Source of the DNA: Parcubacteria group bacterium M10-OD1-1 | GTDB taxonomy: Bacteria > Patescibacteriota > Minisyncoccia > Moranbacterales > UBA2206 | Direction of reading: 5' to 3' | NCBI GenBank assembly: GCA_003056145.1 | Contig: LSNL01000001.1 | Location: 9,351 to 73,350 of the forward strand | DNA: 64,000 nt | Part shown: positions 13,832-60,768 of the stretch, piece after piece | Position numbering within the stretch: position 1 is the stretch's first letter | Layout of the letters: each line of letters opens with the position of its first letter | The notes under the pieces: generated by a model | The model's database searches: none | What the model was told of the DNA's origin: nothing | The model's input: only the letters and a program-made list of their open reading frames with translations | Translations under genes and position numbers: made by a program

Positions 13832-15847
13832 CTATGGAATCAACTTTTTATATGTTCTTGGGAAAGGCACTGCATCTTGAACCATGTCCATATCTAGTAT
13901 TTTCGCAATCAATCGATCAATACCTATACAAAAACCACCGTGTGGAACAGCTCCATCTACTATAGAAATATAAAACTCATAATCACGAGCATTTATTCCC
14001 GAAAGTTGCATCGACTTTCTTATTTTATCACCATCGGTTTGTCGTATTGCACCACTTACAAGTTCCCACCCACCAACAATCACATCAAAAGTCTCTGTCA
14101 GCCCTTTAGATTTATTTTTAGTATAAAATTTTTTAATAGTATCGGGGTAATCTTTTACGACAAAAATATCGTTACCATATTGTTTTTTTACTAGCTGTCC
14201 AAGATTTGATTCGCTCACAAGCCCAAGATCATCACCAAGAGTCACTGGACTACCATTTTTTCGCAACATATCGACTGCCTCGTGATATGTTAATATCGGT
14301 ATGTTGTCTACTTCAGGAATAACTAAATAGCGTTGTAAATCAAAAGTTTCTACAATTTTGTCATTAGATTTTTTTATTATTGAGCAGGCTAGGAAATAAA
14401 GCTCTTTTAGATTTTTTGGATTATTGAATTCAATATCAAGCCCGATAGATTCTTGTAAATGCCTATATGACTCACTTTCTTCTTTTCTCCAAAATGGACC
14501 TATCTCATAAACTTTATCCATCCCTGAGGCTACGAGTATTTGTTTATATATTTGGTTAGATTGACGCAAAAAAGCAGTGGTTCCATTAATCCAGTCCACA
14601 TTGATTGTTCCTCCCTTGTCGATCTTAGGTGGATCGGTTGAAATTCCCACAATATGAGGAGTTGTGACTTCTATAAAATTTTCATTATGTAAATATTCTC
14701 TTATGCTATTTATCAACTCTCCTCTTTGTTTTATTAAATTAATTTTCTTTTCATCAAGTTTTAAAGTGTGATTCTTTTGTTTGTAAATATACTTTTTCCC
14801 AATATTTTTATTTATCGTATTTATAACAGTATTTAATTTGCTCTGTATGACAACTCGCACTTTACTAATCTCTTTTTTACGAAGTTGAGTGTTTTGTTCG
14901 GCTATTTTTGATAATTCACTAATATCAACTATAGCATTTAGTTTTTCATTCAAAATCGGAGGTGAAACAAGATCTACAAAATAGATTTTTGAAGTGTCTG
15001 GTATTGTCTTTATTAATCTCTCGACAATTTTTTTAGTATTCTCATTATTATCTAGCGCCACCACAACAGAGCTAATATTATTGGAAATTATAAGTTTATC
15101 AAGAGATAAATAATGCACAGATATTTCATCGAGATTCTCCTTTTTAATATCAATAGGAGTACGATTTAAAATATATACGGGCAAAAATAGTTCACGATTT
15201 AATATTTTAGCAATAAGTTTTCCGGATTTTCCGTAACCAACCAAAAGAACACTCTGCTTTTCCTGGGTATTTTGCGCAATAAGCTCGCATGCAATTCTTT
15301 CAAGTGATATATTCCCATTAAAAAGACTTGTTCTTAATTTGCAATCCGCAACAATCTCAGTTAGCCATTTTGCAATAGTCTTAAGAACTTCAATGCCACC
15401 ATGGATTCCTGAAAGCAACCCATTATTTATCTGCTTTGAAACTTGTGAGTCCCCAATTGTGACACTATGTAGCCCAACAACACACTCTGCTAAAAATTTA
15501 AGAGCGTCAATATTATGGGACATCTTAATATCTCTTGTCATATCTAAAATTCCCTCTTTGGAGTTTTTATCCCATGTCGCCAACAATCTGTCATGGATAT
15601 AATCAAATGACAAATCATTCATATACGAAGCAACCACTATAACCGCATTGCATTTTTTTATTATCGCTAAAGATTCAATTTCAATACCTAAATCTTTCTT
15701 AAATTTTTCTAAAGCATCCAAGTCACTCTCAAGATTTGCTGAATTCAAATTAGACAACGCCCTGTTATCAAGTCTTTGATAGTTAAGTGTCGCACAGATT
15801 ATTTTAGTATGTAGTTGCATATTTTTATTTATTATTTCTATATACAT
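13832..15847 (-). CDS. Fusion protein with an N-terminal glutamyl-tRNA reductase (HemA)-like domain (putative Cys-Asn, NAD(P) Rossmann) and a C-terminal class IIb aaRS (AspRS/AsnRS-type) catalytic core without an anticodon-binding domain
   Basis: The N-terminal half carries KKCNAVIVVA, GLHSVTIGDSQVSKQIN, VLLVGYGKSGKLIAKIL and FVDLVSPPILNEKLNAIVDISEL. The C-terminal half carries motif 1 FIEVTTPHI, LRQSNQIYKQIL, motif 2 FWRKEESESYRHLQESIGLDIEF, and motif 3 GGFCIGIDRL. The start could instead be the internal Met at 15820. Confidence 0.7.
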   Translation of the reverse strand: MYIEIINKNMQLHTKIICATLNYQRLDNRALSNLNSANLESDLDALEKFKKDLGIEIESLAIIKKCNAVIVVASYMNDLSFDYIHDRLLATWDKNSKEGILDMTRDIKMSHNIDALKFLAECVVGLHSVTIGDSQVSKQINNGLLSGIHGGIEVLKTIAKWLTEIVADCKLRTSLFNGNISLERIACELIAQNTQEKQSVLLVGYGKSGKLIAKILNRELFLPVYILNRTPIDIKKENLDEISVHYLSLDKLIISNNISSVVVALDNNENTKKIVERLIKTIPDTSKIYFVDLVSPPILNEKLNAIVDISELSKIAEQNTQLRKKEISKVRVVIQSKLNTVINTINKNIGKKYIYKQKNHTLKLDEKKINLIKQRGELINSIREYLHNENFIEVTTPHIVGISTDPPKIDKGGTINVDWINGTTAFLRQSNQIYKQILVASGMDKVYEIGPFWRKEESESYRHLQESIGLDIEFNNPKNLKELYFLACSIIKKSNDKIVETFDLQRYLVIPEVDNIPILTYHEAVDMLRKNGSPVTLGDDLGLVSESNLGQLVKKQYGNDIFVVKDYPDTIKKFYTKNKSKGLTETFDVIVGGWELVSGAIRQTDGDKIRKSMQLSGINARDYEFYISIVDGAVPHGGFCIGIDRLIAKILDMDMVQDAVPFPRTYKKLIP

Positions 15848-16580
15848 TCTCTACCGTTGCCTGATGTAATGGCGTTACGGTAATTTCATTTATTTGTACA
15901 TGCTCTGGTGATTCTATGGAAAACTTTATAATTGTAGCGATGTCCTCGGCTGAAAGAGGTTTAATGCCAAAATATGCTTCTTTTGCCTTTTCTTTATCCC
16001 CATCAAAACGCGTAATGCTAAAATTTGTTTCAACTAATCCTGGTTGAATATTCGTTATTCTAATTTTATGCTCAATTACATCTTTGCGAAGACCGTCTGA
16101 AATAGATTTTACTGCAGCTTTAGTTGCAGAATAGACTATACCTTTTGCATAAGTGTTAATACCTGCTATTGAACCCATATTAACAATATGTCCATTATTT
16201 TTATCTTTCATATATTTCAAAGCAAACTTTGTAACATAAAGTAGACCTGCAATATTAGTATTTAACATTGTGTCCCAATCTGAAATAAGGCTTCCTTCAA
16301 AACTATCTAGTCCAAGAGCGAGACCTGCGGAATTAATTAGAACCTCTGGATATATTTTTTTCTCGTCAAGCATACCAAACATTTTTTTCACTTGTTCGTT
16401 GTCTGTAACGTCAACTCCAACTACCATTACTTCTTCATCGGAAACTCCAAGATCTTTTTTTACATCGTGTAACTTGTCTAAATTTCTAGAACAAAGCACT
16501 AATCTATTGCCAGCTTGTAGCTTGTAAGCACATGCTAAACCTATCCCACTACTCGCACCTGTTATAAGTATTGTTTTCAT
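15825..16580 (-). CDS. NADP-dependent short-chain dehydrogenase, YdfG-like (3-hydroxy acid / serine dehydrogenase, malonic semialdehyde reductase family)
   Basis: It has TGASSGIG, NSAGLALG and the catalytic YSATKAA, and shows block-by-block similarity to E. coli YdfG. Its start ATG overlaps the aspS stop (ATGA). Confidence 0.85.
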   Translation of the reverse strand: MKTILITGASSGIGLACAYKLQAGNRLVLCSRNLDKLHDVKKDLGVSDEEVMVVGVDVTDNEQVKKMFGMLDEKKIYPEVLINSAGLALGLDSFEGSLISDWDTMLNTNIAGLLYVTKFALKYMKDKNNGHIVNMGSIAGINTYAKGIVYSATKAAVKSISDGLRKDVIEHKIRITNIQPGLVETNFSITRFDGDKEKAKEAYFGIKPLSAEDIATIIKFSIESPEHVQINEITVTPLHQATVENVYRNNK

Positions 16581-17998
16581 GTATTAATTTTTGTTATTTT
16601 AACTCCCAATTCTTTCTTCTGCTTATCTGAAATTTGTGCAGGTGCTCCAAGTATTAAATCTTTTCCATCTCCTGTTTTAGCGAAAGGTATCACTTCTCTA
16701 ATACTTAATTCATTTTCAAGAATCATGATAAGACGATCAAAACCCCATGCAATACCTCCATGTGGTGGAGCACCATACGAAAAAGCCTCAAGTATATGAC
16801 CAAAATTCTTTTCAATTTTATCATCTGTATACCCCATAATTTCAAAGGTTTTTTTTAAAGCTTCTGATTTGTGATTTCGTATGCTACCACCACCAATTTC
16901 AAAACCATTGAGTATAATATCATATTGTGTTGTTAAAATATTGCCTATGTTTTCTTTATTCATAAACATTTTTAGGTGTTCATCTTTTGGTTTCGAAAAA
17001 GGATTATGCGTAAATGTCCACTCTCCCGTCCCATCTACATTTTCATCTTCTGTTTTTTCAAACATAGGAAAATCTACTACCCACAAAAACGCCAGAAGAT
17101 TTGGGTTATTCTTATCTTCACGAATGTCTGGTCTATCATTGCCGTATTTTTCCATTGCTCCTGCATAAGTTATTCTCGGAAATGGTATCTGTTGAATTTG
17201 TTTTTCTGGATACTGTTTCTTGATAAGCTCAATTAATAACTGTTCGTTGATTTGCATAATATCCTCTTCATCGACAAAAGCGAGTTCCATATCTAGCTGA
17301 GTAAATTCAGCTTGTCTATCGCCACGAGCATCTTCATCACGCATACATCGTGCGAACTGAAAATATTTTTCAAAACCAGCAGTCATTAAGAGTTGCTTGT
17401 ATTGTTGTGGTGATTGAGGAAGTGCATAGAAATCTCCTTTCCATATTCTATGAGGAACAATAAATGAGCGAGACCCTTCTGGAGTTGGCACTGAAAGTAT
17501 AGGAGTTTCAATTTCAATGAAATTTTGCTCACTTAAATAATTACGCACAAAATTTTGTACCTTAAATCTATTTTTAATATTTTTCTGCATACGAGATGTC
17601 CGCAAATCAAGATAACGATACTTAAGTCGTGTACTTTCATTCACCTCCCTAGTGTCACCATCGATAGGAAACGGCAAAACTTCAGCAAAATTAAGCACAA
17701 TGATTTTTAAAATCTCAAGTTCAATATCACCATTTTGCGTGTTTGGTTTTTTGTTCCTTTCGGGGCGTTCATTTACTTTTCCAGTTACCTCAACTACGCA
17801 CTCTTCACGAATATTCTTCCCAACATCCATTGCTCCACTTTTTGGTAAAATAACCCCTTGTACCACTCCCGTTGTATCTCGGAAATCAAGAAAAACCATC
17901 TTTCCTTGATCGCGTCTAACCTTAACCCACCCTTTAATTACAACTTGCTTACCTATTTTAGATGAAAGTTTATTTATGTATATTCTATTTATTTTCAT
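16577..17998 (-). CDS. aspS: Aspartyl-tRNA synthetase, bacterial-type sequence but compact (GAD insertion domain absent)
   Basis: It has an OB anticodon-binding N-terminus, LPQSPQQYKQLLM, motif 2 CMRDEDARGDRQAEFTQLDMELAF, and motif 3 PPHGGIAWGFDRL. It is 473 aa, against ~590 aa for GAD-containing AspRS. Confidence 0.9.
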   Translation of the reverse strand: MKINRIYINKLSSKIGKQVVIKGWVKVRRDQGKMVFLDFRDTTGVVQGVILPKSGAMDVGKNIREECVVEVTGKVNERPERNKKPNTQNGDIELEILKIIVLNFAEVLPFPIDGDTREVNESTRLKYRYLDLRTSRMQKNIKNRFKVQNFVRNYLSEQNFIEIETPILSVPTPEGSRSFIVPHRIWKGDFYALPQSPQQYKQLLMTAGFEKYFQFARCMRDEDARGDRQAEFTQLDMELAFVDEEDIMQINEQLLIELIKKQYPEKQIQQIPFPRITYAGAMEKYGNDRPDIREDKNNPNLLAFLWVVDFPMFEKTEDENVDGTGEWTFTHNPFSKPKDEHLKMFMNKENIGNILTTQYDIILNGFEIGGGSIRNHKSEALKKTFEIMGYTDDKIEKNFGHILEAFSYGAPPHGGIAWGFDRLIMILENELSIREVIPFAKTGDGKDLILGAPAQISDKQKKELGVKITKINT

Positions 17999-18112: not shown

Positions 18113-18202
18113 TGGCGGAGAGTGAGGGATTCGAACCCTCGAAGCCGGTTAAAACTTGCCACCTTTCCAAGGTGGTGCACTAGACCACTATGCGAACTCT
18201 CC
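18113..18202 (-). tRNA. tRNA-Ser (anticodon GGA), 90 nt with a long variable arm and encoded CCA
   Basis: The manual fold gives a 7-bp acceptor stem (GGAGAGT/ACTCTCC), a D-arm, an anticodon stem CCACC/GGTGG with loop TTGGAAA, a 17-nt variable arm, T-loop TTCGAAT, discriminator G, and CCA. Confidence 0.85.
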
Positions 18203-25006: not shown

Positions 25007-25459
25007 ATGTTTACTTTCTCTAAATACGCTATTTTCATTATTCCCCTAATTGTTTTAATTTCTGCTCGGATTTTAAAATTTATTATTTTTTATTTCAAAC
25101 ACAATGATGATTTAAAATATGCTATTCGTCACTCTATGACTTATGGACATATGCCGAGTGTTCATTCCGCCTTAATGGTTTCCTTAGTCACTTCTATTGG
25201 TTATTATTCTGGTTTAACTTCTGGTGCTTTTTCCATTGCTTTGATTATGGCAATTCTAATTATTGATGATGCCACTAGATTAAGAGTTTATATGGGTGAC
25301 CATAGTCGGTACATCAATATGCTAATTGGAAAAATTCAAGCTAACCAGATAGATTATCCACATTTAAAAGAAAGAATGGGACATAAAATTAGCGAAGCTA
25401 TCGCTGGAGGAATCTTAGGATTAGTGCTTACTCTAATTCTAATAAGATTTTTTGGATAA
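25007..25459 (+). CDS. Divergent PAP2/acid-phosphatase-related membrane protein (DUF212, YuiD-like)
   Basis: GHMPSVHSALMVSL and a multi-TM topology support the call. Its 3' end overlaps the convergent murE-like gene by ~30 nt. Confidence 0.55.
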   Translation: MFTFSKYAIFIIPLIVLISARILKFIIFYFKHNDDLKYAIRHSMTYGHMPSVHSALMVSLVTSIGYYSGLTSGAFSIALIMAILIIDDATRLRVYMGDHSRYINMLIGKIQANQIDYPHLKERMGHKISEAIAGGILGLVLTLILIRFFG

Positions 25460-26672
25460 TTTTTTTATCGTTCCAAGTAATTCTTTTTTTTCTAATTGCC
25501 ATTGTTTCTTCCGCACCTTTTCCTGTTACAATTACAAAATCACCAGACCTTGCAATTTGTAGAGCTTTTTTAATTGCCTCACGACGATCAACTATTTTCC
25601 AAAAATTTATATTTTCTTGTTTATTTTTAATTCCTCGTGCTACTTCGTTAATAATTTGCCAAGGATCTTCTCCATAAGGATCTTCATTGGTTACAAATAC
25701 ATAGTCAGTGCTATTAGCGACGATTTCTCCCATAATCGGTCGTTTTCCGCGATCACGCTCCCCGCAAGAACCAAAGACTGCAATAACTTTCTTTTTTTGA
25801 ATATTAAGTTTTTTAATAAGTTCATATAATTTTTCCAAAGAATCTGGAGTTACAGCGTAATCAATGATAATATTTAGTCCTTTGTTATTTGCTACACTCT
25901 CCATTCTTCCTGGCACACCCTTAATTTTCTCCAAAGCCTTAGCACAAATTTTCAAATTAATATTTTCCAGGGTTCCAACACTAATAGCGGCTAGAGCATT
26001 TTCAATATTAAAGTTACCCATTAAATTTAAGCTAATCTCTTGATTCTTAATTATAAAAGAAGATTTATCAATACCCGTTTCAATATTTTTGGCCAAAATA
26101 TCCGCTTGATTATTTTTCAAACTATATGTAATTATTTTTTTATCTGTATCTTGCAAAAATTCTTCTGGTTTTTTCATATCTAAGTTTACTACAATATTTT
26201 TTGCTTTTTTGAATAATAATTTCTTAGCCTGACGATATTTCTCCATTGTCTTATGATAATCTAAATGCTCGCGCGTAACATTAGTAATAATCGCAGTATC
26301 ATATTTCACTCCCCAAACTCGATACTGATCCAATGAATGGGAAGATGTTTCTAAAACGACATAATCATGATGAGAAAGAACCGCTTCAGAAATAAATTTT
26401 TGAACAGTAAAAGCAGAAAGGGTTGTAAATTTAGTTTTATTTATTTTTTCTATCCCGTTAAATCTAAAATTAATTGTAGAAGTCATAGCTACTTTATTTC
26501 CCGCTTCTTCTAAAATTTTAGTTATCATTTGAACTGTTGTTGTTTTTCCGTTTGTCCCTGTCACTCCTATCACTTTTATTTTCCGACTGGGATATCCATA
26601 CCAAAGATTTGCCAAGATAGCTTGGACTAAGTGATAATAATTTTTCAATTTTTGCGGAATAATTTTTTTCAT
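25428..26672 (-). CDS. murE: Mur ligase, MurE-like (UDP-MurNAc-L-Ala-D-Glu: diamino acid ligase), lacking most of the N-terminal domain 1
   Basis: The evidence is GVTGTNGKTTT, ETSSHSLDQYRV...TNVTREHLDYH, and the C-terminal DYAVTPDSL (cf. MurE DYAHTPDAL). At 414 aa it is shorter than the ~490 aa typical for MurE. Confidence 0.65.
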   Translation of the reverse strand: MKKIIPQKLKNYYHLVQAILANLWYGYPSRKIKVIGVTGTNGKTTTVQMITKILEEAGNKVAMTSTINFRFNGIEKINKTKFTTLSAFTVQKFISEAVLSHHDYVVLETSSHSLDQYRVWGVKYDTAIITNVTREHLDYHKTMEKYRQAKKLLFKKAKNIVVNLDMKKPEEFLQDTDKKIITYSLKNNQADILAKNIETGIDKSSFIIKNQEISLNLMGNFNIENALAAISVGTLENINLKICAKALEKIKGVPGRMESVANNKGLNIIIDYAVTPDSLEKLYELIKKLNIQKKKVIAVFGSCGERDRGKRPIMGEIVANSTDYVFVTNEDPYGEDPWQIINEVARGIKNKQENINFWKIVDRREAIKKALQIARSGDFVIVTGKGAEETMAIRKKRITWNDKKIIQKILLELE

Positions 26673-27646: not shown

Positions 27647-28645
27647 TTAGAATTTTTTATTTTTAAGACTTCTTATGTTTTGAATCGTTCTATATAAATA
27701 ATATCGCATAGGATTAATAATAATATCATAACTCCCAGGAAATTTAACTGGTTTAGTCTTTGGTGAAAAACCTGATTTAAACCGTGTAATACCTCTCCAT
27801 GAATTTTTGCCGCTCTCAATACTAACCCCGCCAAAATCATATCTCATCATCCCTTTTTTTTGAGCTATTCTCATTTGTTGCCATTGCAAAAGATACGATG
27901 CCATCACATTCTTATATTTATCATCTGAAGCTCCATGTAAATAAGTAGCCATTTCCCCAAAAAAAATAACCAAATTAACAGCTGTTACTTGACCTTGATA
28001 TTGAGCAACAAATATATTTAATTTATCCCTTGGAATGGTAGCTATCATTTTTTGATAATATTCTTTAGGATGAGAAACAATTCCTTGCCGTTTAGCAGTA
28101 ATTTGAGCTAATCGCCAGAACTCTTCTAAATATTGTTGCTTATTTTTTTCCTGAGCTACTATGATTTTCACATTTTTTTTCCCCGCCAATCGAATATTGT
28201 ACCGAGTTTTACTTTTCATTTGAGCTAATAATTCTTCTTCTGTTTTCAAAATATCCACCACTAAAACTTCTCTTGGTTGCATATCATGCGGAGCCTTTTG
28301 AATTTTATAATTTATATTTTTTTCAATCTCCACTAACTGATTTTTTGTTACTGGCTCAATTCTAATCCAGCCAGCCTTTTCTTTTTTGGCTAACTTTATT
28401 ATTTTTTTCAATCTCTCTTTGTTATTTTCCAAACTAGATTTCTTTAAAATCGGTCCACGAGGAATATAAAAATATTTTCCCACAATCGGTAATTGATGCT
28501 TAATTATGTTTGCCCAAAAACTTTCTCCCTCTAGATGATACGTTTTTCTTCCTACTGCTTCTTGAAAATTTTTCCATTCATTTGATTGCAAAAAACCACC
28601 ATCAGGAGAATTCTGTTGAATAAAACTATTTTTATTATTTTCCAT
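27647..28645 (-). CDS. FemAB-family aminoacyl-tRNA-dependent peptidoglycan interpeptide-bridge transferase (FemX-like)
   Basis: The N-terminal FLQSNEW-type start is typical of the FemABX family, and the ~330-aa length fits FemX/MurM. Confidence 0.65.
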   Translation of the reverse strand: MENNKNSFIQQNSPDGGFLQSNEWKNFQEAVGRKTYHLEGESFWANIIKHQLPIVGKYFYIPRGPILKKSSLENNKERLKKIIKLAKKEKAGWIRIEPVTKNQLVEIEKNINYKIQKAPHDMQPREVLVVDILKTEEELLAQMKSKTRYNIRLAGKKNVKIIVAQEKNKQQYLEEFWRLAQITAKRQGIVSHPKEYYQKMIATIPRDKLNIFVAQYQGQVTAVNLVIFFGEMATYLHGASDDKYKNVMASYLLQWQQMRIAQKKGMMRYDFGGVSIESGKNSWRGITRFKSGFSPKTKPVKFPGSYDIIINPMRYYLYRTIQNIRSLKNKKF

Positions 28646-28669
28646 AAAAAATTATTCTAACTTAAAGAG

Positions 28670-28740
28670 AGCAAGATACGAGACTCGAACTCGTCTTTTC
28701 TGCTTGGGAAGCAGATGTACTACCCCTGTACTAATCTTGC
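28670..28740 (-). tRNA. tRNA-Gly (anticodon CCC), 71 nt, no encoded CCA
   Basis: The manual fold gives acceptor GCAAGAT/ATCTTGC, D-arm GTAC-AGGGGTA-GTAC, anticodon stem TCTGC/GCAGA with loop TTCCCAA, T-arm ACGAG-TTCGAGT-CTCGT, and discriminator U. Confidence 0.85.
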
Positions 28741-39731: not shown

Positions 39732-42700
39732 ATGATTAAAATAACTAAAGAAGTAAAAAAAGAAGTAAAAAAAGAATCTAAAACTCAAAAAATTATTTCT
39801 CGTTTTAGAAAAAAAGAAGAAGAAGAAATGACTTCCGCTTTAGCTAATGAATTAAACCTTCCCTATATAGATACTAATTTAGTACCTATTTCTACTGACG
39901 CTATTAAACTTTTAAGCGAAGAAGAGTCTGTAAAATTTGAGCTAGCTATTATTCATCGCTCAGGGAAAAATGTTACTTTAGTTGCTACCCATCCTCAACA
40001 AACCGATACTCAAGAATTTATTAAAAAACTTCAAGAGAAAGAAAGTTGGAAAATAAAAATTTTTATTATTTCCCGCTCTAATCTTCAACGAATTTGGGAA
40101 AGATATAAAAAGATTGTTTTTGTTGACGCCCTTGATCAAATGAGTCTTAATCTTAGCGGGAAAGATTTAGAAAAGTTTGAAGCTGAAATGAAAGATTTAA
40201 TTACATTGAAACATCGTATTGTTGAACTGCCAGTTACTCAAATTCTAAATATTATGCTAGCGGGAGCTTATAAGTTAGGTGCTAGCGATGTACATATTGA
40301 ACCTCAAGAAAAAGAACTCCGCCTTCGTTATAGAATTGATGGTGTACTTCAAGATGTTGCTTTTTTACCTCTTAATGTTTTTAAGAGTGTTATCTCTCGT
40401 CTTAAGTTAATGGCACATATGAAATTAAACTTGCGAGACATTGCTCAAGATGGAACCTTTGAAATTAATTTAGCTGAAAAAAAAATTTCTATCCGAGCAT
40501 CTATTATTCCTGGTAATTTTGGCGAATCAATAGTAATGAGATTGTTAGATCCAGATTCTATTAAAGTTCAGCTTGAAAGTCTAGGCATTCAAGGTTTAGC
40601 TTACGAAACTCTCCAAAAACAAATAGAAGCCCCAAATGGAATGATTTTAAATACTGGTCCAACAGGTTCAGGAAAAACTACCACGCTTTATTCTATTATT
40701 AATAAACTAAACACTCCCGATAAAAAAATAATTACTATTGAAGATCCTATTGAATATGAATTGAAAGGCATCTCTCAAACTCAAATAGATAAAGACCACG
40801 GCTATTCTTTTGCTCAAGGTCTTCGTGCTATGGTTAGACAAGATCCAGATGTAATTTTAGTAGGAGAAATCCGAGATGATGAAACAGCTGATATTGCTGT
40901 TAATTCAGCTCTTACTGGGCATTTAGTCCTTTCTTCTTTGCATACTAATAATGCTATTGGAGCCATTCCCCGACTTTTAGAGTTGGGAATAAAACCTACT
41001 TTAATGGCTCCTTCTATCAATGCTATTGTCGGTCAACGATTAGTAAGAAAACTTTGTGATTGTAAAGAAGCTTACGCACCAGCCAAAGAATCTATTGAAT
41101 CAATTAAAAAAATTCTTTCTATTATTTCACCCAAGTCTAAAATAGAAATTCCTAAAAAGATTGAAAAACTTTATCGCCCGACTGGTTGTCCTAAATGCAA
41201 TAACATTGGCTATAAAGGACGCGTAGGAATATTTGAAATTCTAACTATTAATGAAGAAATTGAAAAATTAATTTTAGATATGGCTGGCGAAACTGATTTA
41301 GCTGTCACTGCTTTAGAAGCTGGTATGGTAACCATGCTTCAGGATGGAATTTTAAAAGCTGTTAATGGTATCACCTCTATTGATGAAGTTGAGCGAGTAA
41401 CTGGACAAGGAGAATTTCTAGAAGCTATTTATGAAAAATTAATGGCTCAAACTTTAGGCAAAGGTATTTTAATAGAAAAAACTCATTATGAAAATGCTCA
41501 GGCAGTCGCTCATAATTTTAAAAAACTAGGAGAACTTTTACTTTCCTTAAAGACAACTGAAATTAATAAAACTATTTTTGCCGCCGCCGCCATTCTTGGC
41601 GTTGGTGACATTCACATAGAACCTGAAGAAAATGATGTTAAAATTAGATTTAGAATTGATGGAATTTTACAAAATATCGTTTCTTTGCCTCTCAATGAAT
41701 ATCCAGCTTTATTAGGTGAAATAAAAATACTTTCTGGTGTTAAAACTGAAGTTAGACAAGGAGTGGTAGATAGTCGCTTTACTATTAAATTTGATGATGA
41801 TATTGACTCAGGAAAAAAGAAAAAAATTGACGTCAGAATTTCTATTATTTTAGGTGGTTATGGAGAAACAGTAGTAATGCGTTTACTTAATCAATCCTCA
41901 GTCAGTTTAGATTTAACAAAACTAGGTATTCGCCAACAAAATTTAGAAAAACTTCTTCACCAAGCTAAAAAACCTAATGGGATTGTTTTAAATACTGGCC
42001 CAACTGGCTCAGGAAAAACTACCACGCTTTATAGTGTACTCAACATTCTCAATAAGCCAGAAGTCAAAATTATTACCGTTGAAGATCCAATTGAATATCA
42101 AATCCCAGGCATTCTTCAAACGCCCACTAACGAAAAAGAAGGTTACACATTTTCTACTGCTCTACGAGCACTCTTACGACAAAATCCTGACATTCTCATG
42201 ATCGGTGAAATGCGAGACAATGAAACAGCTCAAGTAGCTGTACAAGCTGCTTTAACTGGACATTTAGTTCTCTCCACTATCCATACCAATAGTTCAGCTG
42301 GAGCGGTAGCAAGGATTATGAATATGGGAGTCTCTCCCTCTGACATAGCTACTTCATCTAACGCTTTTTTTGCCCAAAGATTAGTGCGTCATCTTTGCGA
42401 TTGCAAAGAAAAAGTCATTCCTACTCAAGAAGAAAAAAATAAGATTGAAGGTGTCCTTAAATCTATTAGTCAAGAATCAGGAGTTGAAATCCCTTCAGTT
42501 AATGATATTTACCATCCTAAAGGTTGTGCAAAATGTAACCAAATTGGCTATCGTGGACGCACAACTATTAGTGAAATATTTGTTATTGATCGTGAGATAG
42601 AAGAATTAATAACCCGTGGAGCTATTACTTCTGAACTTCAAGATAAAGCCGTAGAATTAGGAATGATTACTTTAGTCCAAGATGGAGTTCTAAAAGTTTT

Positions 42701-42749
42701 AGAAGGGGAAACTAGCCTTGAAGAAGTAGAGCGCGTAACAGATTTATAA
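39732..42749 (+). CDS. pilB: Tandem-duplicated type IV pilus / type II secretion ATPase (two complete PilB/GspE modules in one 1005-aa polypeptide)
   Basis: It has a GspE N1 domain, then two modules. Each carries Walker A (GPTGSGKTTTLYS), an Asp box (EDPIEY), Walker B (GEIRD / GEMRD), a His box (GHLVLS), and a tetracysteine motif (CDCK...CPKC / CDCK...CAKC). Confidence 0.85.
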   Translation: MIKITKEVKKEVKKESKTQKIISRFRKKEEEEMTSALANELNLPYIDTNLVPISTDAIKLLSEEESVKFELAIIHRSGKNVTLVATHPQQTDTQEFIKKLQEKESWKIKIFIISRSNLQRIWERYKKIVFVDALDQMSLNLSGKDLEKFEAEMKDLITLKHRIVELPVTQILNIMLAGAYKLGASDVHIEPQEKELRLRYRIDGVLQDVAFLPLNVFKSVISRLKLMAHMKLNLRDIAQDGTFEINLAEKKISIRASIIPGNFGESIVMRLLDPDSIKVQLESLGIQGLAYETLQKQIEAPNGMILNTGPTGSGKTTTLYSIINKLNTPDKKIITIEDPIEYELKGISQTQIDKDHGYSFAQGLRAMVRQDPDVILVGEIRDDETADIAVNSALTGHLVLSSLHTNNAIGAIPRLLELGIKPTLMAPSINAIVGQRLVRKLCDCKEAYAPAKESIESIKKILSIISPKSKIEIPKKIEKLYRPTGCPKCNNIGYKGRVGIFEILTINEEIEKLILDMAGETDLAVTALEAGMVTMLQDGILKAVNGITSIDEVERVTGQGEFLEAIYEKLMAQTLGKGILIEKTHYENAQAVAHNFKKLGELLLSLKTTEINKTIFAAAAILGVGDIHIEPEENDVKIRFRIDGILQNIVSLPLNEYPALLGEIKILSGVKTEVRQGVVDSRFTIKFDDDIDSGKKKKIDVRISIILGGYGETVVMRLLNQSSVSLDLTKLGIRQQNLEKLLHQAKKPNGIVLNTGPTGSGKTTTLYSVLNILNKPEVKIITVEDPIEYQIPGILQTPTNEKEGYTFSTALRALLRQNPDILMIGEMRDNETAQVAVQAALTGHLVLSTIHTNSSAGAVARIMNMGVSPSDIATSSNAFFAQRLVRHLCDCKEKVIPTQEEKNKIEGVLKSISQESGVEIPSVNDIYHPKGCAKCNQIGYRGRTTISEIFVIDREIEELITRGAITSELQDKAVELGMITLVQDGVLKVLEGETSLEEVERVTDL

Positions 42750-48539: not shown

Positions 48540-49214
48540 ATGTATTACCTTCACAGTTTAGGAATTTTTATTAGTCCTAGTATTCATTTTTTTCTTCAGG
48601 AGGGTGTTCCTTTTGATACTATCATTCTAATTCTTATGCTCCCAATTATCGCTACTTTAATTGCTTTTTTTGGACAAGTTTTAGGAATTAAAGCTTTTGG
48701 AATTTACACTCCTTTGATTGTAACCTTTGCTTTTTTAGCTACTAATGGAATTAAGTATGGCATTACTATTTTTGTTTCTATTATTTTAATTGGAATGGTG
48801 ATGCGTTTCATTTTAAAACCTTTCCGGCTTCTTTATCTGCCTCGTGTCGCTATAATGCTAACTGCTGTAGCAATTTTAACTTTAGGTCTTTTAGTTTTTG
48901 GTGGTGGGCTTAGAAGAACTGGACTAGCCGCCGTTTCTATTTTTCCTATTCTTATTATGATTACTTTAGTAGAAAAATTTGTAGCGGTTCAAATTGAAAA
49001 AGGAAATAAAGCAGCTTTAATTCTAACCTTAGAGACTCTTTTTATTTCAATTATTGGTTTTTTTATTGCTAGCTCCGAACCACTTATTAAACTCATTGCT
49101 TTGAGACCTTGGGTTATTTTATTAACTATTCCTTTAAATATTCTTTTAGGAAAATGGACTGGATTAAGAGTAAGTGAATATTTTCGCTTTAGGGAGATTT
49201 TTAAATATTTGTAA
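48540..49214 (+). CDS. 7-TM membrane protein of the type associated with RimK-like ligase / retropepsin-like protease cassettes (7TM_transglut-like)
   Basis: It has 6-7 predicted TM helices and sits immediately upstream of the ATP-grasp-retropepsin fusion. Confidence 0.45.
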   Translation: MYYLHSLGIFISPSIHFFLQEGVPFDTIILILMLPIIATLIAFFGQVLGIKAFGIYTPLIVTFAFLATNGIKYGITIFVSIILIGMVMRFILKPFRLLYLPRVAIMLTAVAILTLGLLVFGGGLRRTGLAAVSIFPILIMITLVEKFVAVQIEKGNKAALILTLETLFISIIGFFIASSEPLIKLIALRPWVILLTIPLNILLGKWTGLRVSEYFRFREIFKYL

Positions 49215-49217
49215 ACC

Positions 49218-50612
49218 ATGTTAGATTTTTTCAAAAAAAGTCGCCAGATTTTAGGAATGAATTCTAGAAATTTAGAATTCATTCGTCCTTTTAATTTAAA
49301 ACGAGCTAAACGCCTAGCTGATGATAAATTAAAAAGTAAAAAAATCTTACAAAAAAATAATTTATCTGTTCCTAAGTTAATTACTAAAATTTCCTCTCAT
49401 AAAGAATTGGATAATTTTGATTGGCAATCGCTCCCTAATAGTTTTGCTTTAAAACCCAATCGAGGTTTTGGTGGAGAAGGAATTTTGGTTGTTTACGGCA
49501 AGAAAAAAGGTCGTGATGATACTTGGGTAAAAGCTAACCGCTCTTTAGTTACTATTGAAGATTTAAAAATTCATATTAGAAATATTTTAGATGGTTTCTT
49601 CTCTCTTTCTGGAACTCCCGACATCGCCTTTTTTGAAGAACGACTTCAATTATTAAAACTTTTTAAACCTTATTCTTATCGAGGAATTCCTGATATCCGA
49701 GTTTTAGTTTTTAATAAGGTTCCTATTATGGCTATGCTCCGCCTACCCACTAAAAGTTCCAATGGGAAAGCTAATTTACAGCAAGGAGCTATTGGCTTAG
49801 GCATTGATATGGCAACTGGAACCACTACAACTGCTGTTTTAGGAAAAAATAAAATAATTGATTATGTTCCTAAAACTAGAATGCTTCTTTCTGGAATAAA
49901 AATTCCTTATTGGAAAGATATTCTTGCTTTAGCTATAAAGTCACAAGATGTTTCTGGTTTGGGTTTCCTAGGTGCCGATATTGCTATTGATAAAGTTCAT
50001 GGACCAGTTATTATTGAGCTTAATGCTCGCCCAGGACTCTCTATTCAAATTGCTAATTTAGCTGGTTTAAAAGGTCGCTTAAAAAAAATATCTGGTTTAA
50101 AAATTAAAACTTTAGCTCGAGGTATGAGAGTGGGCATAGATCTTTTTGGAGGAGAGATTGAAGAAGAATTAGAAGAAGTTTCTGGAAAAAAAGTTATCGG
50201 TACTATAGAAAAAGTAAAACTTATTAGCAAAGAAAAAAATGAAATAGAAATTTCCGCTAAAATTGATACAGGCGCTGGCTTTTCTTCTATTGATACAAAT
50301 TTAGCTAAACAATTAGGTTTTGAAAAAACAGTTTCTGAATACGAAAAATTAAATATAGATTATGAAAAAATAAAAAAACTTAATTCCGAAGAAAGAAAAG
50401 AATTATTTAAAAACATTCCCGATTTAGCTGATACGATAATTGTTCACTCTTCGCATGGCACCACTTATCGACCAATGATAAAAATTTATCTAATTATGGA
50501 CAATACCAAGATTCCTGTTACTGTCTCTATCATTGATCGTTCTAATTTAAAAATGCCCATGATTATTGGCAAAAGAAATCTTCAAAGATTTTTAATTGAT
50601 GTAACTAAATAA
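49218..50612 (+). CDS. RimK-related ATP-grasp ligase (alpha-L-glutamate ligase-like) fused to a retropepsin-like 'putative ATP-dependent zinc protease' domain
   Basis: The N-terminal ATP-grasp part carries KPNRGFGGEGILVV and IIELNARPGLSIQ. The C-terminal ~130 aa carries the aspartic-protease-like AKIDTGAGFSSID. Confidence 0.6.
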   Translation: MLDFFKKSRQILGMNSRNLEFIRPFNLKRAKRLADDKLKSKKILQKNNLSVPKLITKISSHKELDNFDWQSLPNSFALKPNRGFGGEGILVVYGKKKGRDDTWVKANRSLVTIEDLKIHIRNILDGFFSLSGTPDIAFFEERLQLLKLFKPYSYRGIPDIRVLVFNKVPIMAMLRLPTKSSNGKANLQQGAIGLGIDMATGTTTTAVLGKNKIIDYVPKTRMLLSGIKIPYWKDILALAIKSQDVSGLGFLGADIAIDKVHGPVIIELNARPGLSIQIANLAGLKGRLKKISGLKIKTLARGMRVGIDLFGGEIEEELEEVSGKKVIGTIEKVKLISKEKNEIEISAKIDTGAGFSSIDTNLAKQLGFEKTVSEYEKLNIDYEKIKKLNSEERKELFKNIPDLADTIIVHSSHGTTYRPMIKIYLIMDNTKIPVTVSIIDRSNLKMPMIIGKRNLQRFLIDVTK

Positions 50613-50613
50613 A

Positions 50614-51555
50614 ATGAAAAAAGTAATGATTCTTTTTGGTAAGAGTAATTGGCAAAAAGCCAAACCTTTCGCCAATAAAGATTATCAATATTCTTACGAA
50701 TATTTTTATGATCTTTGTCAAAAAAATAATATTCAAATGTATCGCGCCTCTTATCAATGGTATGACTACAAAAAACATCTTTTTAAACACGCCTGGATTT
50801 TTGAAGGCAAAGGTGGACAATGGAAAAAAGTAACTAATATTAAACCCGATCTTGTTTATGATAAAACTAAAGCTCGCCGAGAGGTTTATTATAAAAAAGA
50901 ACTTATTAGAGAATATTATCCTTTTCTTAATGATTTAGAATTCACTGAATTAGTTGATGATAAATTAACTACTAGTCTTCTTTTCCCTCAATGGAGTAAA
51001 AAGAATTGGTTAATAAAAAATCAAACTGACTTAAAACATTTTTTACCCCAAATAAAAACTCGCCTAGCAGTTTTAAAGCCACTAGCTGATAGTGGCGGTA
51101 AAGGTATTCAAATTTTAAAAAAATCTGAGATACTAGAGAAAGCTCAACTAGGACGACCTTATTTATTACAAAATTTTATAGACTCATCTAAAGGCGTTCC
51201 TGGAGTTAGTTATCATATGCATGACTTGAGATTAGTCTTTGTTAATAATAAATATATTTATTCTTATATTAGAGAACCAAATCAAGGAAGTTATTTAGCT
51301 AATTTAGCTCAAGGAGGTAAACTTATTATTGTCCCTGAAAATAAATTACCCCAATCATTGAATCCAATCATAGAAGAAGTTAATGAAACTTTCAAAACTT
51401 TTTCCCCGCGAATTTACGCTATTGATTTTATGTTTGATGAAAAAAAACAACCTTGGATAGTAGAACTTAATTCTATGCCAGGATTATATTTTACCCCAGA
51501 GGAAAAACCATATATGCTTAAAATGTACAAAGAACTATTACAAGTATTTAAATAA
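50614..51555 (+). CDS. ATP-grasp ligase, YheC/YheD-like
   Basis: LKPLADSGGKGIQIL and WIVELNSMPG are ATP-grasp C-terminal motifs. Confidence 0.5.
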   Translation: MKKVMILFGKSNWQKAKPFANKDYQYSYEYFYDLCQKNNIQMYRASYQWYDYKKHLFKHAWIFEGKGGQWKKVTNIKPDLVYDKTKARREVYYKKELIREYYPFLNDLEFTELVDDKLTTSLLFPQWSKKNWLIKNQTDLKHFLPQIKTRLAVLKPLADSGGKGIQILKKSEILEKAQLGRPYLLQNFIDSSKGVPGVSYHMHDLRLVFVNNKYIYSYIREPNQGSYLANLAQGGKLIIVPENKLPQSLNPIIEEVNETFKTFSPRIYAIDFMFDEKKQPWIVELNSMPGLYFTPEEKPYMLKMYKELLQVFK

Positions 51556-51569
51556 TCAATAAGAGGATA

Positions 51570-52436
51570 TTGAAAAAAATAAACTTCGCAATCATCGGCT
51601 CGCTAACTGAAAATACCTTAGACTTAAAAAATGAGATTAAAAAAAGAGGATTTTTTGTTTCTGTTTTTTCTCTAAATAGCGTCTTCTTGGAATTTAACAG
51701 CAATAATTTTATTGCCAGAAATAAGAAAATTTCTCTTAATGATTTTGATATTTTTCTTTTTAGAGCTTATAATAAAAACTTTAGAGAAGCTAGAATTTTA
51801 GCTGAAGCTTTACTAGCTAAAAATAAAATTGTTATTGATACTGTTTTAGGTTTAAATATGATCAATAGTAAAATTTATGAAGCTAGTAAATTAAATCAAG
51901 CAGGAATTAACTATCCTAAAACATGGCAATCAATTTGGGGGAGGAATTATAATGAGATTCTTAAAAAAATAGATTTTCCTCTTATTGTAAAACCTATTTA
52001 CGGACAAAAAGGTCAAGGAGTAGAAAAAATAGAAAATGAGCAGGACTTTATAAAATTTTTTGAAACTAATCCCAAGGGATATTTAATGCAAGAGTTTTTT
52101 AAAATTGATGGAGATATTAGAGTTTTTATTGTTAATGGAAAGATTTTAGGAGGAATAAAAAGATACCTCACAAAAAATGATTTTCGCTCAAATATTTCCT
52201 TAGGTGCTAAAATAAAAAAAATAGACCTAACCGATGAAATGAAAAAAATTGCTATTAAGGCTGCTAATGCTATGCAATATGAAATTGCTGGAGTTGATCT
52301 CATTGAATATAAAAATAAAATTTATGTTTTAGAGGTTAATTCAACTCCTCAATGGCAAGGATTTAAAAAGGCTACTGGAATTAATCCAGCTAAGGAGATA
52401 ATTACATATGCCCTAAAAAAATATGAGAAAATATAA
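51570..52436 (+). CDS. RimK-family ATP-grasp ligase
   Basis: The segments PLIVKPIYGQKGQGV, DIRVFIVNGKILGGIKR, DFRSNISLGAK and YVLEVNSTPQWQGF match RimK-type ligases. Confidence 0.6.
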   Translation: MKKINFAIIGSLTENTLDLKNEIKKRGFFVSVFSLNSVFLEFNSNNFIARNKKISLNDFDIFLFRAYNKNFREARILAEALLAKNKIVIDTVLGLNMINSKIYEASKLNQAGINYPKTWQSIWGRNYNEILKKIDFPLIVKPIYGQKGQGVEKIENEQDFIKFFETNPKGYLMQEFFKIDGDIRVFIVNGKILGGIKRYLTKNDFRSNISLGAKIKKIDLTDEMKKIAIKAANAMQYEIAGVDLIEYKNKIYVLEVNSTPQWQGFKKATGINPAKEIITYALKKYEKI

Positions 52437-53385
52437 AGTAGGTTTTTTAAAGAAAGCCCAAGGTGTTTTCTCTAAAAATACGATAAAAAACATAGAAAAT
52501 AAACTCAGAACTATTGATAATATTGAACTTTTTACCGACCTAGATTTTAGAAAAGCCTATGTTTTAAATGGTAATGTTTATATAGAAAATTTTAACCTCA
52601 ACTCACTTGATCTCTATTTCTGGCATGACACAGTAAAGCCAAATGATTGGAAGGGAGATAATTTTAATCTAAATATCCTTTCTGTTTTAGAAAAAAACTG
52701 TTTAGTTATTAACACAAGCCAATCAACAAAAATTACTAATGATAAATTTTTAGCCCATACAATTCTTAAAAAAAATGATTTACCCGTGGCTGACTTCGCA
52801 TTAACTAAAGCAACAGATAAAAATGGTCTCACTAAGGCATTTGAAAATCTTGGTGGTACAGTCTTGATTAAACCGCGATTTGGCGGATGGGGAGTGGGAA
52901 TAATAAGAGTTAATAGCCTAGAAAAATTATTTTCTTCAATTGAAATGCTTTTAAGTTTTTTACCAAATAAAAACCAACAAATTTTATTAGAAAAATATTA
53001 TAAAAATGATCTCAATAAATGGATTTCTGTTATAGTTATTGGAGACAAAGTTGTTTTTGGTTATAGAAAAATAATAGGAGAAAGTTCTGATTGGAAAATT
53101 TATGATCCAGACAAAAAAGACGGAAAAGGTGATAATTCTAAATATATTAATCCGCCTGAAGAATTAAAAAAAATAGCCTTAAAAGCAAAACAAGTCATAG
53201 GCAAAGATATTATAGGTTTTGATTTTATTTATACAAATGAGGGTTATAAAATAATTGATGAAAATGGAAGACCTGGAATATATCCCCAATGTTTAGAAAG
53301 CTCAGGCATTAATATTGAAGATGAAATTGTTAATCTTATTTTATCAAAAATAAAAAACCCAATCTATCTCCGTCTTGAAAAATAG
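52423..53385 (+). CDS. ATP-grasp ligase (RimK-like, divergent)
   Basis: It carries LIKPRFGGWGVGI, ISVIVIGDKVVFGYRK and IIGFDFIYTNEGYKIIDENGRPG. It overlaps the preceding gene by 14 nt. Confidence 0.5.
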   Translation: MRKYKVGFLKKAQGVFSKNTIKNIENKLRTIDNIELFTDLDFRKAYVLNGNVYIENFNLNSLDLYFWHDTVKPNDWKGDNFNLNILSVLEKNCLVINTSQSTKITNDKFLAHTILKKNDLPVADFALTKATDKNGLTKAFENLGGTVLIKPRFGGWGVGIIRVNSLEKLFSSIEMLLSFLPNKNQQILLEKYYKNDLNKWISVIVIGDKVVFGYRKIIGESSDWKIYDPDKKDGKGDNSKYINPPEELKKIALKAKQVIGKDIIGFDFIYTNEGYKIIDENGRPGIYPQCLESSGINIEDEIVNLILSKIKNPIYLRLEK

Positions 53386-57435: not shown

Positions 57436-57714
57436 AATAGTATTATTATAGTTAATTTAATTAATATAATATTATTACTAATACTATAAAAGGGTATTCT
57501 AGTTGATAACTAGAAATAACAGTTTAAATAAGGTAATAATATTAGTGGACAATTAGTGAATATTTGATGTTTTATAGGGTAGGTAATGAGGTGATTAAAA
57601 TGAGAAAAAACTTTTTTTAAAAAAACAATCATCTTAAGAACAGGGATATACTTATTTTAAAAACATACTTATCTACTTACTTATCAATATGTTATTAACA
57701 ACTTATTAACAAAA
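57436..57714. promoter_or_regulatory. Candidate oriC / DnaA-box region in the dnaA-dnaN intergenic spacer (AT-rich)
   Basis: It contains near-consensus DnaA boxes (agtggacaa = TTGTCCACT rc, ttatctact, ttatcaata, gttgataac) within >75% AT sequence. Further boxes lie upstream of dnaA at 59095-59388 (agtggatag). Confidence 0.4.
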
Positions 57715-59094: not shown

Positions 59095-59388
59095 AGCTGT
59101 ATGGGTAAAGAATTATAAAAAAATTATATCACAGACAAATTGAATAGTCTAAAGAAAAAAGTGGATAGGTTGTTTATAATATGTGCATTACTATTATAAA
59201 TAGCAACAAAAAAGATTTTTGTAAAGAGATTGGGAAAAAACAAGATCTTTTTGGTCAAATAAAGAGTTAAAAAGGCTATTAATAAAGAATATTTATTAAA
59301 CCTTTATTTAATTGACTTTTAGTTAGTTAGCTGGTAAACTTTAAATTACTTAAAGAAAAGAAAATTATTAGTAAGTTTTTAAAAAAAT

Positions 59389-59523
59389 ATGAGTGAAACC
59401 TATAAACCAAAAACCAAAAGAAGAAAAAGAAGACATGGTTTTTTAAAGCGTAGCCGTACATCAGCTGGTCAAAATATCTTAAAAAGTCGCAGACAAAAAG
59501 GTAGAAAAAAACTTTCAGTTTAA
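59389..59523 (+). CDS. rpmH: 50S ribosomal protein L34 (44 aa; below the ORF-track size cutoff)
   Basis: My translation gives [44 protein letters not shown] (cf. L34 MKRTYQPSKRKRKRTHGFR...RRRAKGRKRLTV). It lies upstream of rnpA. Confidence 0.85.
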
Positions 59524-59596
59524 ATTTTAATTAAAATTGTTAAAAGACAATCTTAATTAAATTTGTTAAAAATACTGAAAATATTGAGTAATTATT

Positions 59597-59941: not shown

Positions 59942-59953
59942 TTTAAACATCAA

Positions 59954-60751: not shown

Positions 60752-60768
60752 TATATAATTTTAAATAT

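Follow-up and report, generated by a model that had tools for sequence, protein, structure and literature searches.

A glutamyl-tRNA reductase-like protein fused to an aspartate-type synthetase core in Patescibacteria: a candidate aspartyl-tRNA synthetase/reductase

What reaction is carried out by a protein that joins a glutamyl-tRNA reductase (GluTR, HemA)-like half to the catalytic core of an aminoacyl-tRNA synthetase (aaRS)? The question is raised by an open reading frame (ORF) of 671 aa at 13832..15847 (- strand, stop codon included) in a 64,000-nucleotide stretch of contig LSNL01000001.1 from Parcubacteria group bacterium M10-OD1-1, an organism with a tiny genome. The whole stretch is referred to here as the window. 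To our knowledge no enzyme besides GluTR, which belongs to haem and chlorophyll synthesis, is known to reduce an aminoacyl-tRNA. An initial annotation, made from the DNA letters alone, described the fusion and offered an amino-acid carboxylate reductase as one reading of it. The analysis presented here suggests a more specific answer, held tentatively and at somewhat less than even confidence. The protein may combine two functions, activation of aspartate and reduction of the aspartyl group, and so be the aspartate counterpart of glutamyl-tRNA synthetase (GluRS) and GluTR in one chain. There is firm evidence for the architecture of the fusion and for its conservation; the reaction is a prediction, although one with good grounds.

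The ORF listing of the window places both halves in one frame with no stop or frameshift between them, and more than 100 independent assemblies (NCBI, JGI, ENA, Logan) carry the fusion as one open frame. A frameshift or chimera is thereby ruled out, and the initial annotation was right to treat the halves as one gene, which is fused in more than 100 homologues. The peptides it quoted are all present in the ORF: KCNA (aa 65-68, by translation), GLHSVTIGDSQV, VLLVGYGKSGKL, FVDLVSPP, FIEVTTPHI, LRQSNQIYKQ, FWRKEESESYRHLQESIGLDIEF and PHGGFCIGIDRL. Because most homologues begin at M10 and residues 1-8 are modelled with pLDDT <50, the true start is probably the ATG at 15820, 4 nt past the stop codon of the preceding gene, which encodes a short-chain dehydrogenase/reductase (SDR).

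All parts of the protein lie on the - strand. A GluTR-like catalytic domain (15323..15820, aa 10-175) carries the invariant K65-C66-N67, G125, S128, G132-D133, Q135-V136 and Q139; within it, the codon of Cys66, the predicted thioester-forming nucleophile, occupies 15650..15652. The NADPH-binding Rossmann domain follows (14924..15322, aa 176-308), with G204-x-G206-x-x-G209, N228-R229-T and D292, and then long helices equivalent to the GluTR 'spinal' helix (14762..14923, aa 309-362) that lead into the aaRS core. The core (13835..14761, aa 363-671) is that of an archaeal-type aspartyl-tRNA synthetase (AspRS) without the OB-fold. Its motifs are FIEVTTP (motif 1), RQSNQIYKQ, FWRKEE..RH (motif 2), LDIE, SGAIR, HGGFCIGIDR (motif 3) and a C-terminal FPRTYKKLIP. 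An AlphaFold2 model built with 75 sequences is confident, with a mean pLDDT of 90.5 and a pTM of 0.69. In the model the spinal-equivalent helices span residues 309-325 and 327-358, and the alignment to the GluTR structure 1gpj runs to residue 323. The helices pass directly into class II motif 1, and the GluTR dimerisation domain is absent. Since class II aaRS cores are obligate dimers, the core probably supplies the dimer interface in place of that domain.

Profile searches assigned the two halves to different families at a level well past chance. Pfam matched tRNA-synt_2 to aa 360-665 (8.6e-53), Shikimate_DH to aa 195-309 (1.8e-6) and GlutR_N to aa 39-142 (2.5e-5; 24.6 bits against a cutoff of 27). 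The NCBIfam hemA model TIGR01035 covers aa 40-377 (2.3e-17) with 63.1 bits against a cutoff of 209.55, and the archaeal-type 'aspartate--tRNA(Asn) ligase' model NF003483 covers aa 325-671 (1.2e-70) with 238.6 bits against 353. Scores with the AspRS model TIGR00458 (190.2 bits, cutoff 368.4), the asparagine synthetase AsnA model (109.6 bits, cutoff 368) and the EpmA/GenX model TIGR00462 (53.7 bits, cutoff 286.9) were also below threshold. The fusion thus falls outside HemA, AspRS, AsnA and EpmA. On the fused core, AspRS models far outscore those of AsnRS, AsnA, LysRS and EpmA. A profile of the family, compared with the sequences in the PDB, matched AspRS 3nel (6.2e-61) and the GluTRs 1gpj (4.7e-29) and 4n7r (2.5e-27).

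These matches bear out a HemA-like N-terminal half and a class IIb C-terminal core with motifs 1-3, both proposed in the initial annotation. The three-part GluTR fold, with catalytic domain, NADPH Rossmann domain and spinal helix, is present in the N-terminal half. A shikimate dehydrogenase or generic Rossmann protein was ruled out for this half, as the match spans the GluTR catalytic domain and the spinal helix. In the Pfam search neither the OB-fold PF01336 nor the GluTR dimerisation domain PF00745 was found in the fusion, and tRNA-synt_2 fills the position of the latter. Furthermore, AspRS models match only from profile position ~88-130. The predicted lack of an anticodon-binding domain therefore stands for the fused core, whereas the neighbouring AspRS has an OB-fold. 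Pfam likewise gave no AMP-binding, PP-binding, NAD_binding_4 or Asd domain in the fusion.

Residue conservation was examined in the 75 sequences, whose identity extends down to 24%. Cys66 pairs with the catalytic Cys of S-T-C-N-R in Arabidopsis GluTR (alignment to 4n7r), and C66 and N67 are invariant, in agreement with the Cys-Asn dyad noted earlier as a candidate. Reductase residues that are invariant or at least 90% conserved are K65, C66, N67, A68, G125, S128, G132, D133, Q135, V136, Q139, S181, E183, R184, G204, G206, G209, N228, R229 and D292. The NADPH motif is intact, as had been claimed. Both reductase and synthetase motifs are kept in 26/26 genomic loci inspected, including those with 32-35% identity. 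The block GLxS..G[DE]xQ, earlier labelled 'glucose-inhibited-division-like', is a GluTR motif and the label a misnomer.

GluTR forms a Cys thioester with its substrate and then transfers hydride from NADPH. The residues for this chemistry are retained; those around the substrate differ. HemA carries the signature [ST]-T-C-N-R with G-E-x-Q-I, as against K-C-N-[ACGS] with G-D-x-Q-V in the fusion clade. The present protein has K-C-N-A and G-D-S-Q-V at the glutamate-recognition positions and so lacks the HemA signature. Among 255 proteins checked, KCNx with GDxQV occurs in 117/118 long proteins (>=560 aa). None of the 84 TCNR proteins is long; all are short stand-alone HemA. In the M. kandleri GluTR structure of Moser et al. 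(2001), Thr49, Arg50 and Glu114 reportedly contact the glutamate. Because these positions are changed in the fusion clade, it appears that the catalytic machinery of GluTR has been kept and the substrate pocket rebuilt. No haem-pathway match was found among the scanned ORFs of the window's 54 ORFs of >=110 aa (a few were unscanned or had no Pfam match), nor any haem-pathway gene in the annotated flanks of related loci. The changed signature and the lack of haem matches agree with the initial proposal that the HemA-like domain has been repurposed.

The synthetase half retains the features of a working AspRS active site. Residues that are invariant or at least 90% conserved are R428, S430, Q432, K435, W453, R454, E456, R462, H463, D471, E473, R602, H636, G637, G638, D644, R645 and the FPRTxxxLIP tail. 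These include all class II ATP-binding residues (R454 and E456 of motif 2, R645 of motif 3) and those that bind L-aspartate (S430, Q432, K435, D471, R602 and H636), the sole change being P to N in QSPQ. The aspartate-binding roles of QSPQxxK, the D of LDxE, the R of SGxxR and the H of PHGG are taken by us to be those seen in AspRS structures. The core aligns end to end with the catalytic domains of the AspRSs of S. tokodaii, T. thermophilus (archaeal-type) and T. kodakarensis, including the FPRxxxRLxP tail.

In a neighbour-joining tree, fused cores and stand-alone cores of 275-340 aa form one clade, sister to archaeal-type AspRS. The stand-alone cores are a small group of ~12 clusters. Two were found within a few kb of fusion genes, one of 324 aa (L001:2527-3501, - strand) and one of 340 aa (L047:39-1061, - strand). 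Both lack the anticodon domain, show 35-40% identity to the fused core and have the derived insertion and motifs in common with it; a search of the window found no stand-alone core. The shared insertion consists of 5-6 residues in the flipping loop, TDPPKxDxGG compared with ATE--GG of AspRS. Other derived changes of the clade at the active-site entrance are FWR for (V/A)FR before the motif 2 Arg, KKFYTK for RPFY, GWE, and QS[NVA]Q for QSPQ. The initial annotation had likened the core to AsnA and EpmA. This holds for the anticodon-less architecture; the sequence is much nearer archaeal-type AspRS (238.6 bits against 109.6 and 53.7). Because of this difference in score, closeness to archaeal-type AspRS rather than to AsnA or EpmA favours activation of the alpha-carboxyl of aspartate in the manner of AspRS.

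The fusion is widely distributed. A set of 5.8 billion proteins, clustered at 90% identity, contains ~100 clusters of full-length homologues of 640-676 aa with identities down to 39%, and remoter members at 24-30%. A HMMER search with the N-terminal 350 aa added ~30 fusion representatives (50% clustering). GTDB species representatives hold 22 full-length loci, almost all from Patescibacteria, the Candidate Phyla Radiation (CPR): Kaiserbacteria, Azambacteria, Falkowbacteria and Moraniibacteriota. The non-CPR labels among them belong to contigs that are short or of doubtful binning. A contig from a metagenome-assembled genome labelled Saccharibacteria is 99% identical to the window. Complete genomes with the fusion are represented by, for example, the 953-kb contig ERZ27236897:k141_2336031, OZ246397.1 and JBFOMW010000020.1. 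One protein, P0192, represents a less derived branch, scoring 188.5 bits with the hemA model and 315.6 bits with the AspRS model. A relative of P0192, P0285, comes from a 625-kb contig with genes for Cdc6/Orc1, a thermosome and class I LysRS; its host is therefore an archaeon, probably of DPANN type. The survey of relatives suggested earlier thus finds the fusion conserved in uncultured organisms, with well over a hundred bacteria, mostly CPR, and some archaea. Public annotations call the family AspRS, GluTR or 'hypothetical', with a few fragments named 'glutamyl-tRNA reductase'. Full-text literature searches returned no description of the fusion, nor of an aspartyl- or aminoacyl-tRNA reductase other than GluTR.

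The genes beside the fusion were examined for possible partners. In the window an SDR of 251 aa (15825..16580, - strand), of the YdfG/YMR226C/IsfD type, abuts or overlaps the fusion and overlaps by 4 nt a bacterial-type AspRS of 473 aa (16577..17998, - strand). The AspRS gene is the first of an apparent AspRS-SDR-fusion operon, and no terminator-like site was found on the - strand within the three genes. This AspRS has the OB-fold and lacks the GAD insertion domain of ~120 residues; the NCBIfam AspRS model matches it in two stretches. AspRS genes beside the fusion in other CPR loci are likewise short (459-478 aa).

The AspRS-SDR-fusion triad, with the SDR immediately upstream of the fusion, recurs in ~10 dereplicated loci. 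Counting all arrangements, AspRS adjoins the fusion in at least 13 of ~24 dereplicated loci and in four different gene orders. The order is fusion-AspRS in L025 and L026; stand-alone core / fusion-AspRS(archaeal-type) in L047; and fusion-AspRS / SDR-Amidohydro_2-NUDIX in L051. On the archaeal 625-kb contig (L050:10001-15669) it is fusion / AspRS / Amidohydro_2 / AspRS, where the AspRS-type genes are full-length (435 and 440 aa), both have QSPQLYK, and three class IIb paralogues share the cluster. The adjacent AspRS is bacterial-type in CPR and archaeal-type in some other loci, and the fused core is archaeal-type. Because a bacterial-type AspRS adjoins an archaeal-type core, the linkage points to a shared function and not to a remnant of tandem duplication.

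Among proteins of solved structure the SDR is closest to yeast YMR226C, E. coli YdfG, sulfoacetaldehyde reductase and clavaldehyde dehydrogenase, each of which uses NADPH to reduce small (polar) aldehydes. The SDR is accordingly predicted, by homology, to reduce the aldehyde product of the fusion with NADPH. An Amidohydro_2 protein is encoded near the fusion in ~7 loci; a search of the window found no such gene, and these proteins match no NCBIfam model and have no relative by sequence in the PDB. The carboxylate-reductase reading of the initial annotation gains support from the overlapping gene for an aldehyde-reductase-type SDR and from the recurrent adjacency of AspRS, as far as gene content can indicate function.

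Several tRNA genes lie near fusion loci. In the window a tRNA-Ser(GGA) gene (18113-18202) precedes the AspRS start by 115 nt on the same strand, with a strong promoter-like site (18282-18254) and a long palindrome (18260-18217) upstream of the tRNA gene. It may be co-transcribed with the AspRS, SDR and fusion genes. A dedicated tRNA gene beside the fusion was considered and rejected, as the window offers only this tRNA-Ser(GGA), upstream of AspRS. In two Patescibacteria loci the fusion is preceded, at a distance of ~230 nt, by a gene for tRNA-Glu (anticodon TTC or CTC; L013:9670-9742 and L016:9715-9787), the tRNA on which the ancestral GluTR acts. Since each of these genes has its own terminator hairpin and the two loci are syntenic, they represent a single event, probably a coincidence. 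No T-box or other riboswitch leader was found with Rfam at gathering thresholds.

How might the two halves work together? The core would make aspartyl-AMP and transfer its aspartyl moiety to a tRNA 3' end, probably that of tRNA-Asp; the full-length AspRS next door may also supply Asp-tRNA. The CCA end, which in aaRSs shuttles between synthetic and editing sites, would carry the ester into the GluTR-like pocket, much as the phosphopantetheine arm does in adenylation-reductase systems. There an aspartyl thioester would form on Cys66 and be reduced by NADPH to aspartate semialdehyde. If both halves keep their ancestral regiochemistry, the product would be the 1-semialdehyde, 3-amino-4-oxobutanoate. 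The co-transcribed YdfG-type SDR would then convert the aldehyde into a 4-hydroxy amino acid. In many genomes the Amidohydro_2 enzyme, from a family rich in lactonases, might handle a derived lactone or similar compound.

Such a protein would be a single-chain aspartyl-tRNA synthetase/reductase and the first aminoacyl-tRNA reductase outside tetrapyrrole biosynthesis, in which an aaRS core adenylates, tRNA serves as swinging acyl carrier and a GluTR paralogue releases the product reductively. With the SDR and Amidohydro_2 it would define a new aspartate-derived pathway to a semialdehyde and a hydroxy-amino-acid, common to CPR bacteria and DPANN-type archaea. This is the account we prefer, yet we stop short of calling it probable.

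Several observations weigh against it. tRNA binding, amino-acid specificity and product are all predictions. The core lacks the anticodon-binding domain, which is a major reader of tRNA identity in AspRS. The derived changes beside the active site of fused and stand-alone cores could mean an acceptor other than A76 of tRNA. We know of no consumer of 3-amino-4-oxobutanoate or of its alcohol, and amino-acid biosynthesis is generally regarded as missing from CPR and DPANN organisms. About one third of the loci, a Falkowbacteria-like group with 42-44% identity, have no AspRS, SDR or Amidohydro_2 nearby. In this group only a convergent gene for a PhnP/RNase Z-like metallo-beta-lactamase (MBL)-fold protein stands beside the fusion; as a functional partner it was dropped, since no link can be argued.

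Variants of the fusion with a damaged synthetase half bear on the choice between mechanisms. In P0100 the motif 2 and motif 3 arginines of the aaRS are lost, in P0151 the aaRS half is unrecognisable and in P0146 it is split off; Cys and NADPH motifs are kept in all three. The 299-aa ORF that follows the split P0146 has no Pfam or NCBIfam match and no BLAST similarity to the core. Because variants with a degenerate or absent aaRS half retain the reductase motifs, it seems that the reductase can accept a diffusible activated substrate, which would fit aminoacyl-tRNA from a neighbouring AspRS.

Two divergent members have other neighbours. A D-Ala-D-Ala-ligase-type ATP-grasp gene directly precedes the gene for P0100 on the same strand (L052:6866-9926); it may be a substitute activating enzyme or merely a housekeeping Ddl. 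The distant member P0153 (L048:1-13941) has as neighbours a class IV aminotransferase, a GFO_IDH_MocA oxidoreductase, an FAD-oxidoreductase-like protein and a stand-alone protein with a nonribosomal peptide synthetase (NRPS) Condensation domain. This context resembles a biosynthetic gene cluster, a hint that some lineages may transaminate or condense the aldehyde.

We wondered whether tRNA is needed at all. Cys66 might attack the aspartyl-AMP made by the core directly, through domain docking or because the adenylate mimics aminoacyl-A76, and NADPH would then free the aldehyde, making the protein a tRNA-independent carboxylate reductase. The missing anticodon-binding domain, the flipping-loop insertion and the other derived changes at the active-site entrance would all suit such a route, and covalent fusion is expected where two active sites must meet. 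However, no carrier or tunnel is evident, and GluTR pockets are generally known to suit a 3'-aminoacyl-adenosine ester and not a 5'-acyl-phosphate anhydride. Furthermore, the direct route does not account for variants in which a dead or missing aaRS half accompanies an intact reductase, and it leaves the recurrent adjacency to a full AspRS unexplained. We regard it as unlikely.

The carboxyl group that is reduced could also be that of the side chain. With AsnA-like activation of the beta-carboxyl, Cys66 and NADPH would yield L-aspartate-4-semialdehyde and the SDR would act as homoserine dehydrogenase, replacing aspartokinase and Asd (and Hom) and feeding diaminopimelate (DAP)/lysine synthesis for peptidoglycan, or threonine/methionine. 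The products, aspartate-4-semialdehyde and homoserine, are useful, known metabolites, and the chemistry parallels that of Asd, in which an activated acyl group passes to a Cys thioester and is reduced by NADPH. A lactone-forming 4-hydroxy acid would suit a lactonase-type Amidohydro_2 neighbour, the anticodon-less architecture is common to AsnA, and among the genes of the window are several for peptidoglycan enzymes (a Mur ligase, FemAB and PBP1a). Against this stand the low AsnA score of the core relative to AspRS and the retention of every residue by which AspRS orients the alpha-amino group and the beta-carboxylate. S128, D133 and Q135, with which GluTR keeps the alpha-amino group beside the thioester, are retained as well, and no dapA, thrB, thrC or hom occurs in any annotated flank. 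Regiochemistry is not readable from sequence, but the retained AspRS pocket argues against activation of the beta-carboxyl, and this route is quite unlikely in our view.

A role for the aaRS half mainly as a scaffold was given the same low weight. The core would replace the GluTR dimerisation domain as a dimer interface and grip the acceptor stem, the substrate would be Asp-tRNA from the neighbouring AspRS, and the reductase half alone would carry out the pathway chemistry. AspRS adjacency in four gene orders is consistent with this, as are the position of the core, exactly that of PF00745, and the persistence of reductase motifs in P0100 and P0151. Conversely, the ATP- and Asp-binding residues of the core are (nearly) invariant in the family and kept in all 26 loci checked, which is unexpected for a purely structural domain.

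A non-reductive role in translation quality control or regulation is very improbable. The protein might hydrolyse or sequester Asp-tRNA or be an unusual substitute for AspRS or AsnRS. Its housekeeping chromosomal context beside AspRS would agree with this, and GluTR is known to act as an esterase without NADPH. However, the NADPH motif GxGxxG with N-R-T is strictly conserved, the partner SDR is of the aldehyde-reductase type and a full AspRS is already present. The last alternative, that the protein is a normal HemA serving haem synthesis or that two genes were joined by misassembly or a frameshift, echoes the few public records that call family fragments 'glutamyl-tRNA reductase' and is clearly refuted by the single frame here and in the other assemblies, the TIGR01035 score far below cutoff, the T-C-N-R signature changed in all members, the missing GlutR_dimer domain and the lack of haem genes among the scanned ORFs of the window.

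In chemistry the proposed synthetase/reductase resembles GluTR; in logic it resembles a GluRS-GluTR pair or an adenylation-reductase enzyme. GluTR/HemA (EC 1.2.1.70; 1gpj, 4n7r) shares the nucleophilic Cys in a C-N motif, the GLxSxxxG[DE]xQ block and the GxGxxG and N-R-T motifs. The fusion differs in the replacement of T-C-N-R by K-C-N-[ACGS] and of G-E-x-Q-I by G-D-x-Q-V, in having an aaRS core in place of the C-terminal dimerisation domain, in scoring under the trusted cutoff of HemA, and in occurring where haem genes are lacking from organism and locus. Archaeal/eukaryal-type AspRS (NF003483; 3nel, 1b8a, 1wyd, 1n9w, 1asy) matches the catalytic core end to end at ~30-35% identity, with motifs 1-3, QSxQxYKQ, LD(I/V)E, SGxxR, PHGGF and the C-terminal FPRxxxxLxP tail in common. 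In contrast to these enzymes the fusion has no OB-fold, carries the flipping-loop insertion, FWR, KKFYTK, GWE and QSNQ, and scores below the trusted cutoff. Models of archaeal asparagine synthetase A (3p8t), E. coli AsnA (11as) and EpmA/GenX (3a5y) score far below AspRS, and none of these proteins has a reductase attached; the stand-alone-core clade of ~12 clusters is the fused core's true sister.

Carboxylic acid reductases, NRPS terminal R domains and aspartate-semialdehyde dehydrogenase resemble the proposed enzyme in logic, an ATP-activated carboxylate passing to a thioester from which NADPH releases an aldehyde. Their folds are unrelated to that of the fusion, in which the activating module is a class II aaRS and the likely carrier is tRNA, not phosphopantetheine. 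The GluRS-GluTR pair of the C5 pathway, the transamidosome and SepRS/SepCysS also couple an aaRS to an enzyme that transforms a tRNA-bound amino acid, with genes clustered with the aaRS. Unlike them, the fusion is covalent, its amino acid is predicted to be Asp, and the predicted outcome is a free aldehyde rather than a new aminoacyl-tRNA.

The window is otherwise housekeeping chromosome. The genes dnaA (57715-59094, - strand) and dnaN (56278-57435, - strand) lie beside rnpA, yidC and jag/KhpB (+ strand). GC content falls to 0.23 at 56-58 kb and GC skew is positive after ~58 kb; 56278-61257 is a likely chromosomal replication origin. A FemAB-family gene (27647-28645, - strand) is directly downstream of tRNA-Gly(CCC) (28669-28740, - strand) and near a Mur ligase gene (25428-26672, - strand), and PBP1a is encoded at 53431-55974. 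This arrangement suggests tRNA-dependent branching of peptidoglycan in this CPR bacterium. At 48540-53385 four ATP-grasp (RimK / sugar-transfer-associated) genes come after a gene for a 7TM_transglut membrane protein, and one of the four carries a fused putative zinc protease domain; the cluster looks like a peptide- or amide-ligase system. A protein of 1005 aa (39732-42749) contains two T2SSE/PilB-type ATPase stretches (Pfam bit score 752) and is apparently a tandem-duplicated secretion or pilus ATPase.

These results describe a second, widespread GluTR-type clade whose pocket appears rebuilt and which is welded to an aspartate-type synthetase core in organisms that make no haem. Because public records name the genes AspRS, GluTR or 'hypothetical', both activities are miscounted when the metabolism of these lineages is reconstructed. 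If the proposed synthetase/reductase is correct, it would be a natural carboxylate reductase with an aaRS for its adenylation module, an example of interest to enzyme engineers, and tRNA-dependent metabolism would gain a reaction and an amino acid. An unrecognised biosynthetic capability would also be revealed in CPR and DPANN episymbionts, usually described as nearly without amino-acid metabolism.

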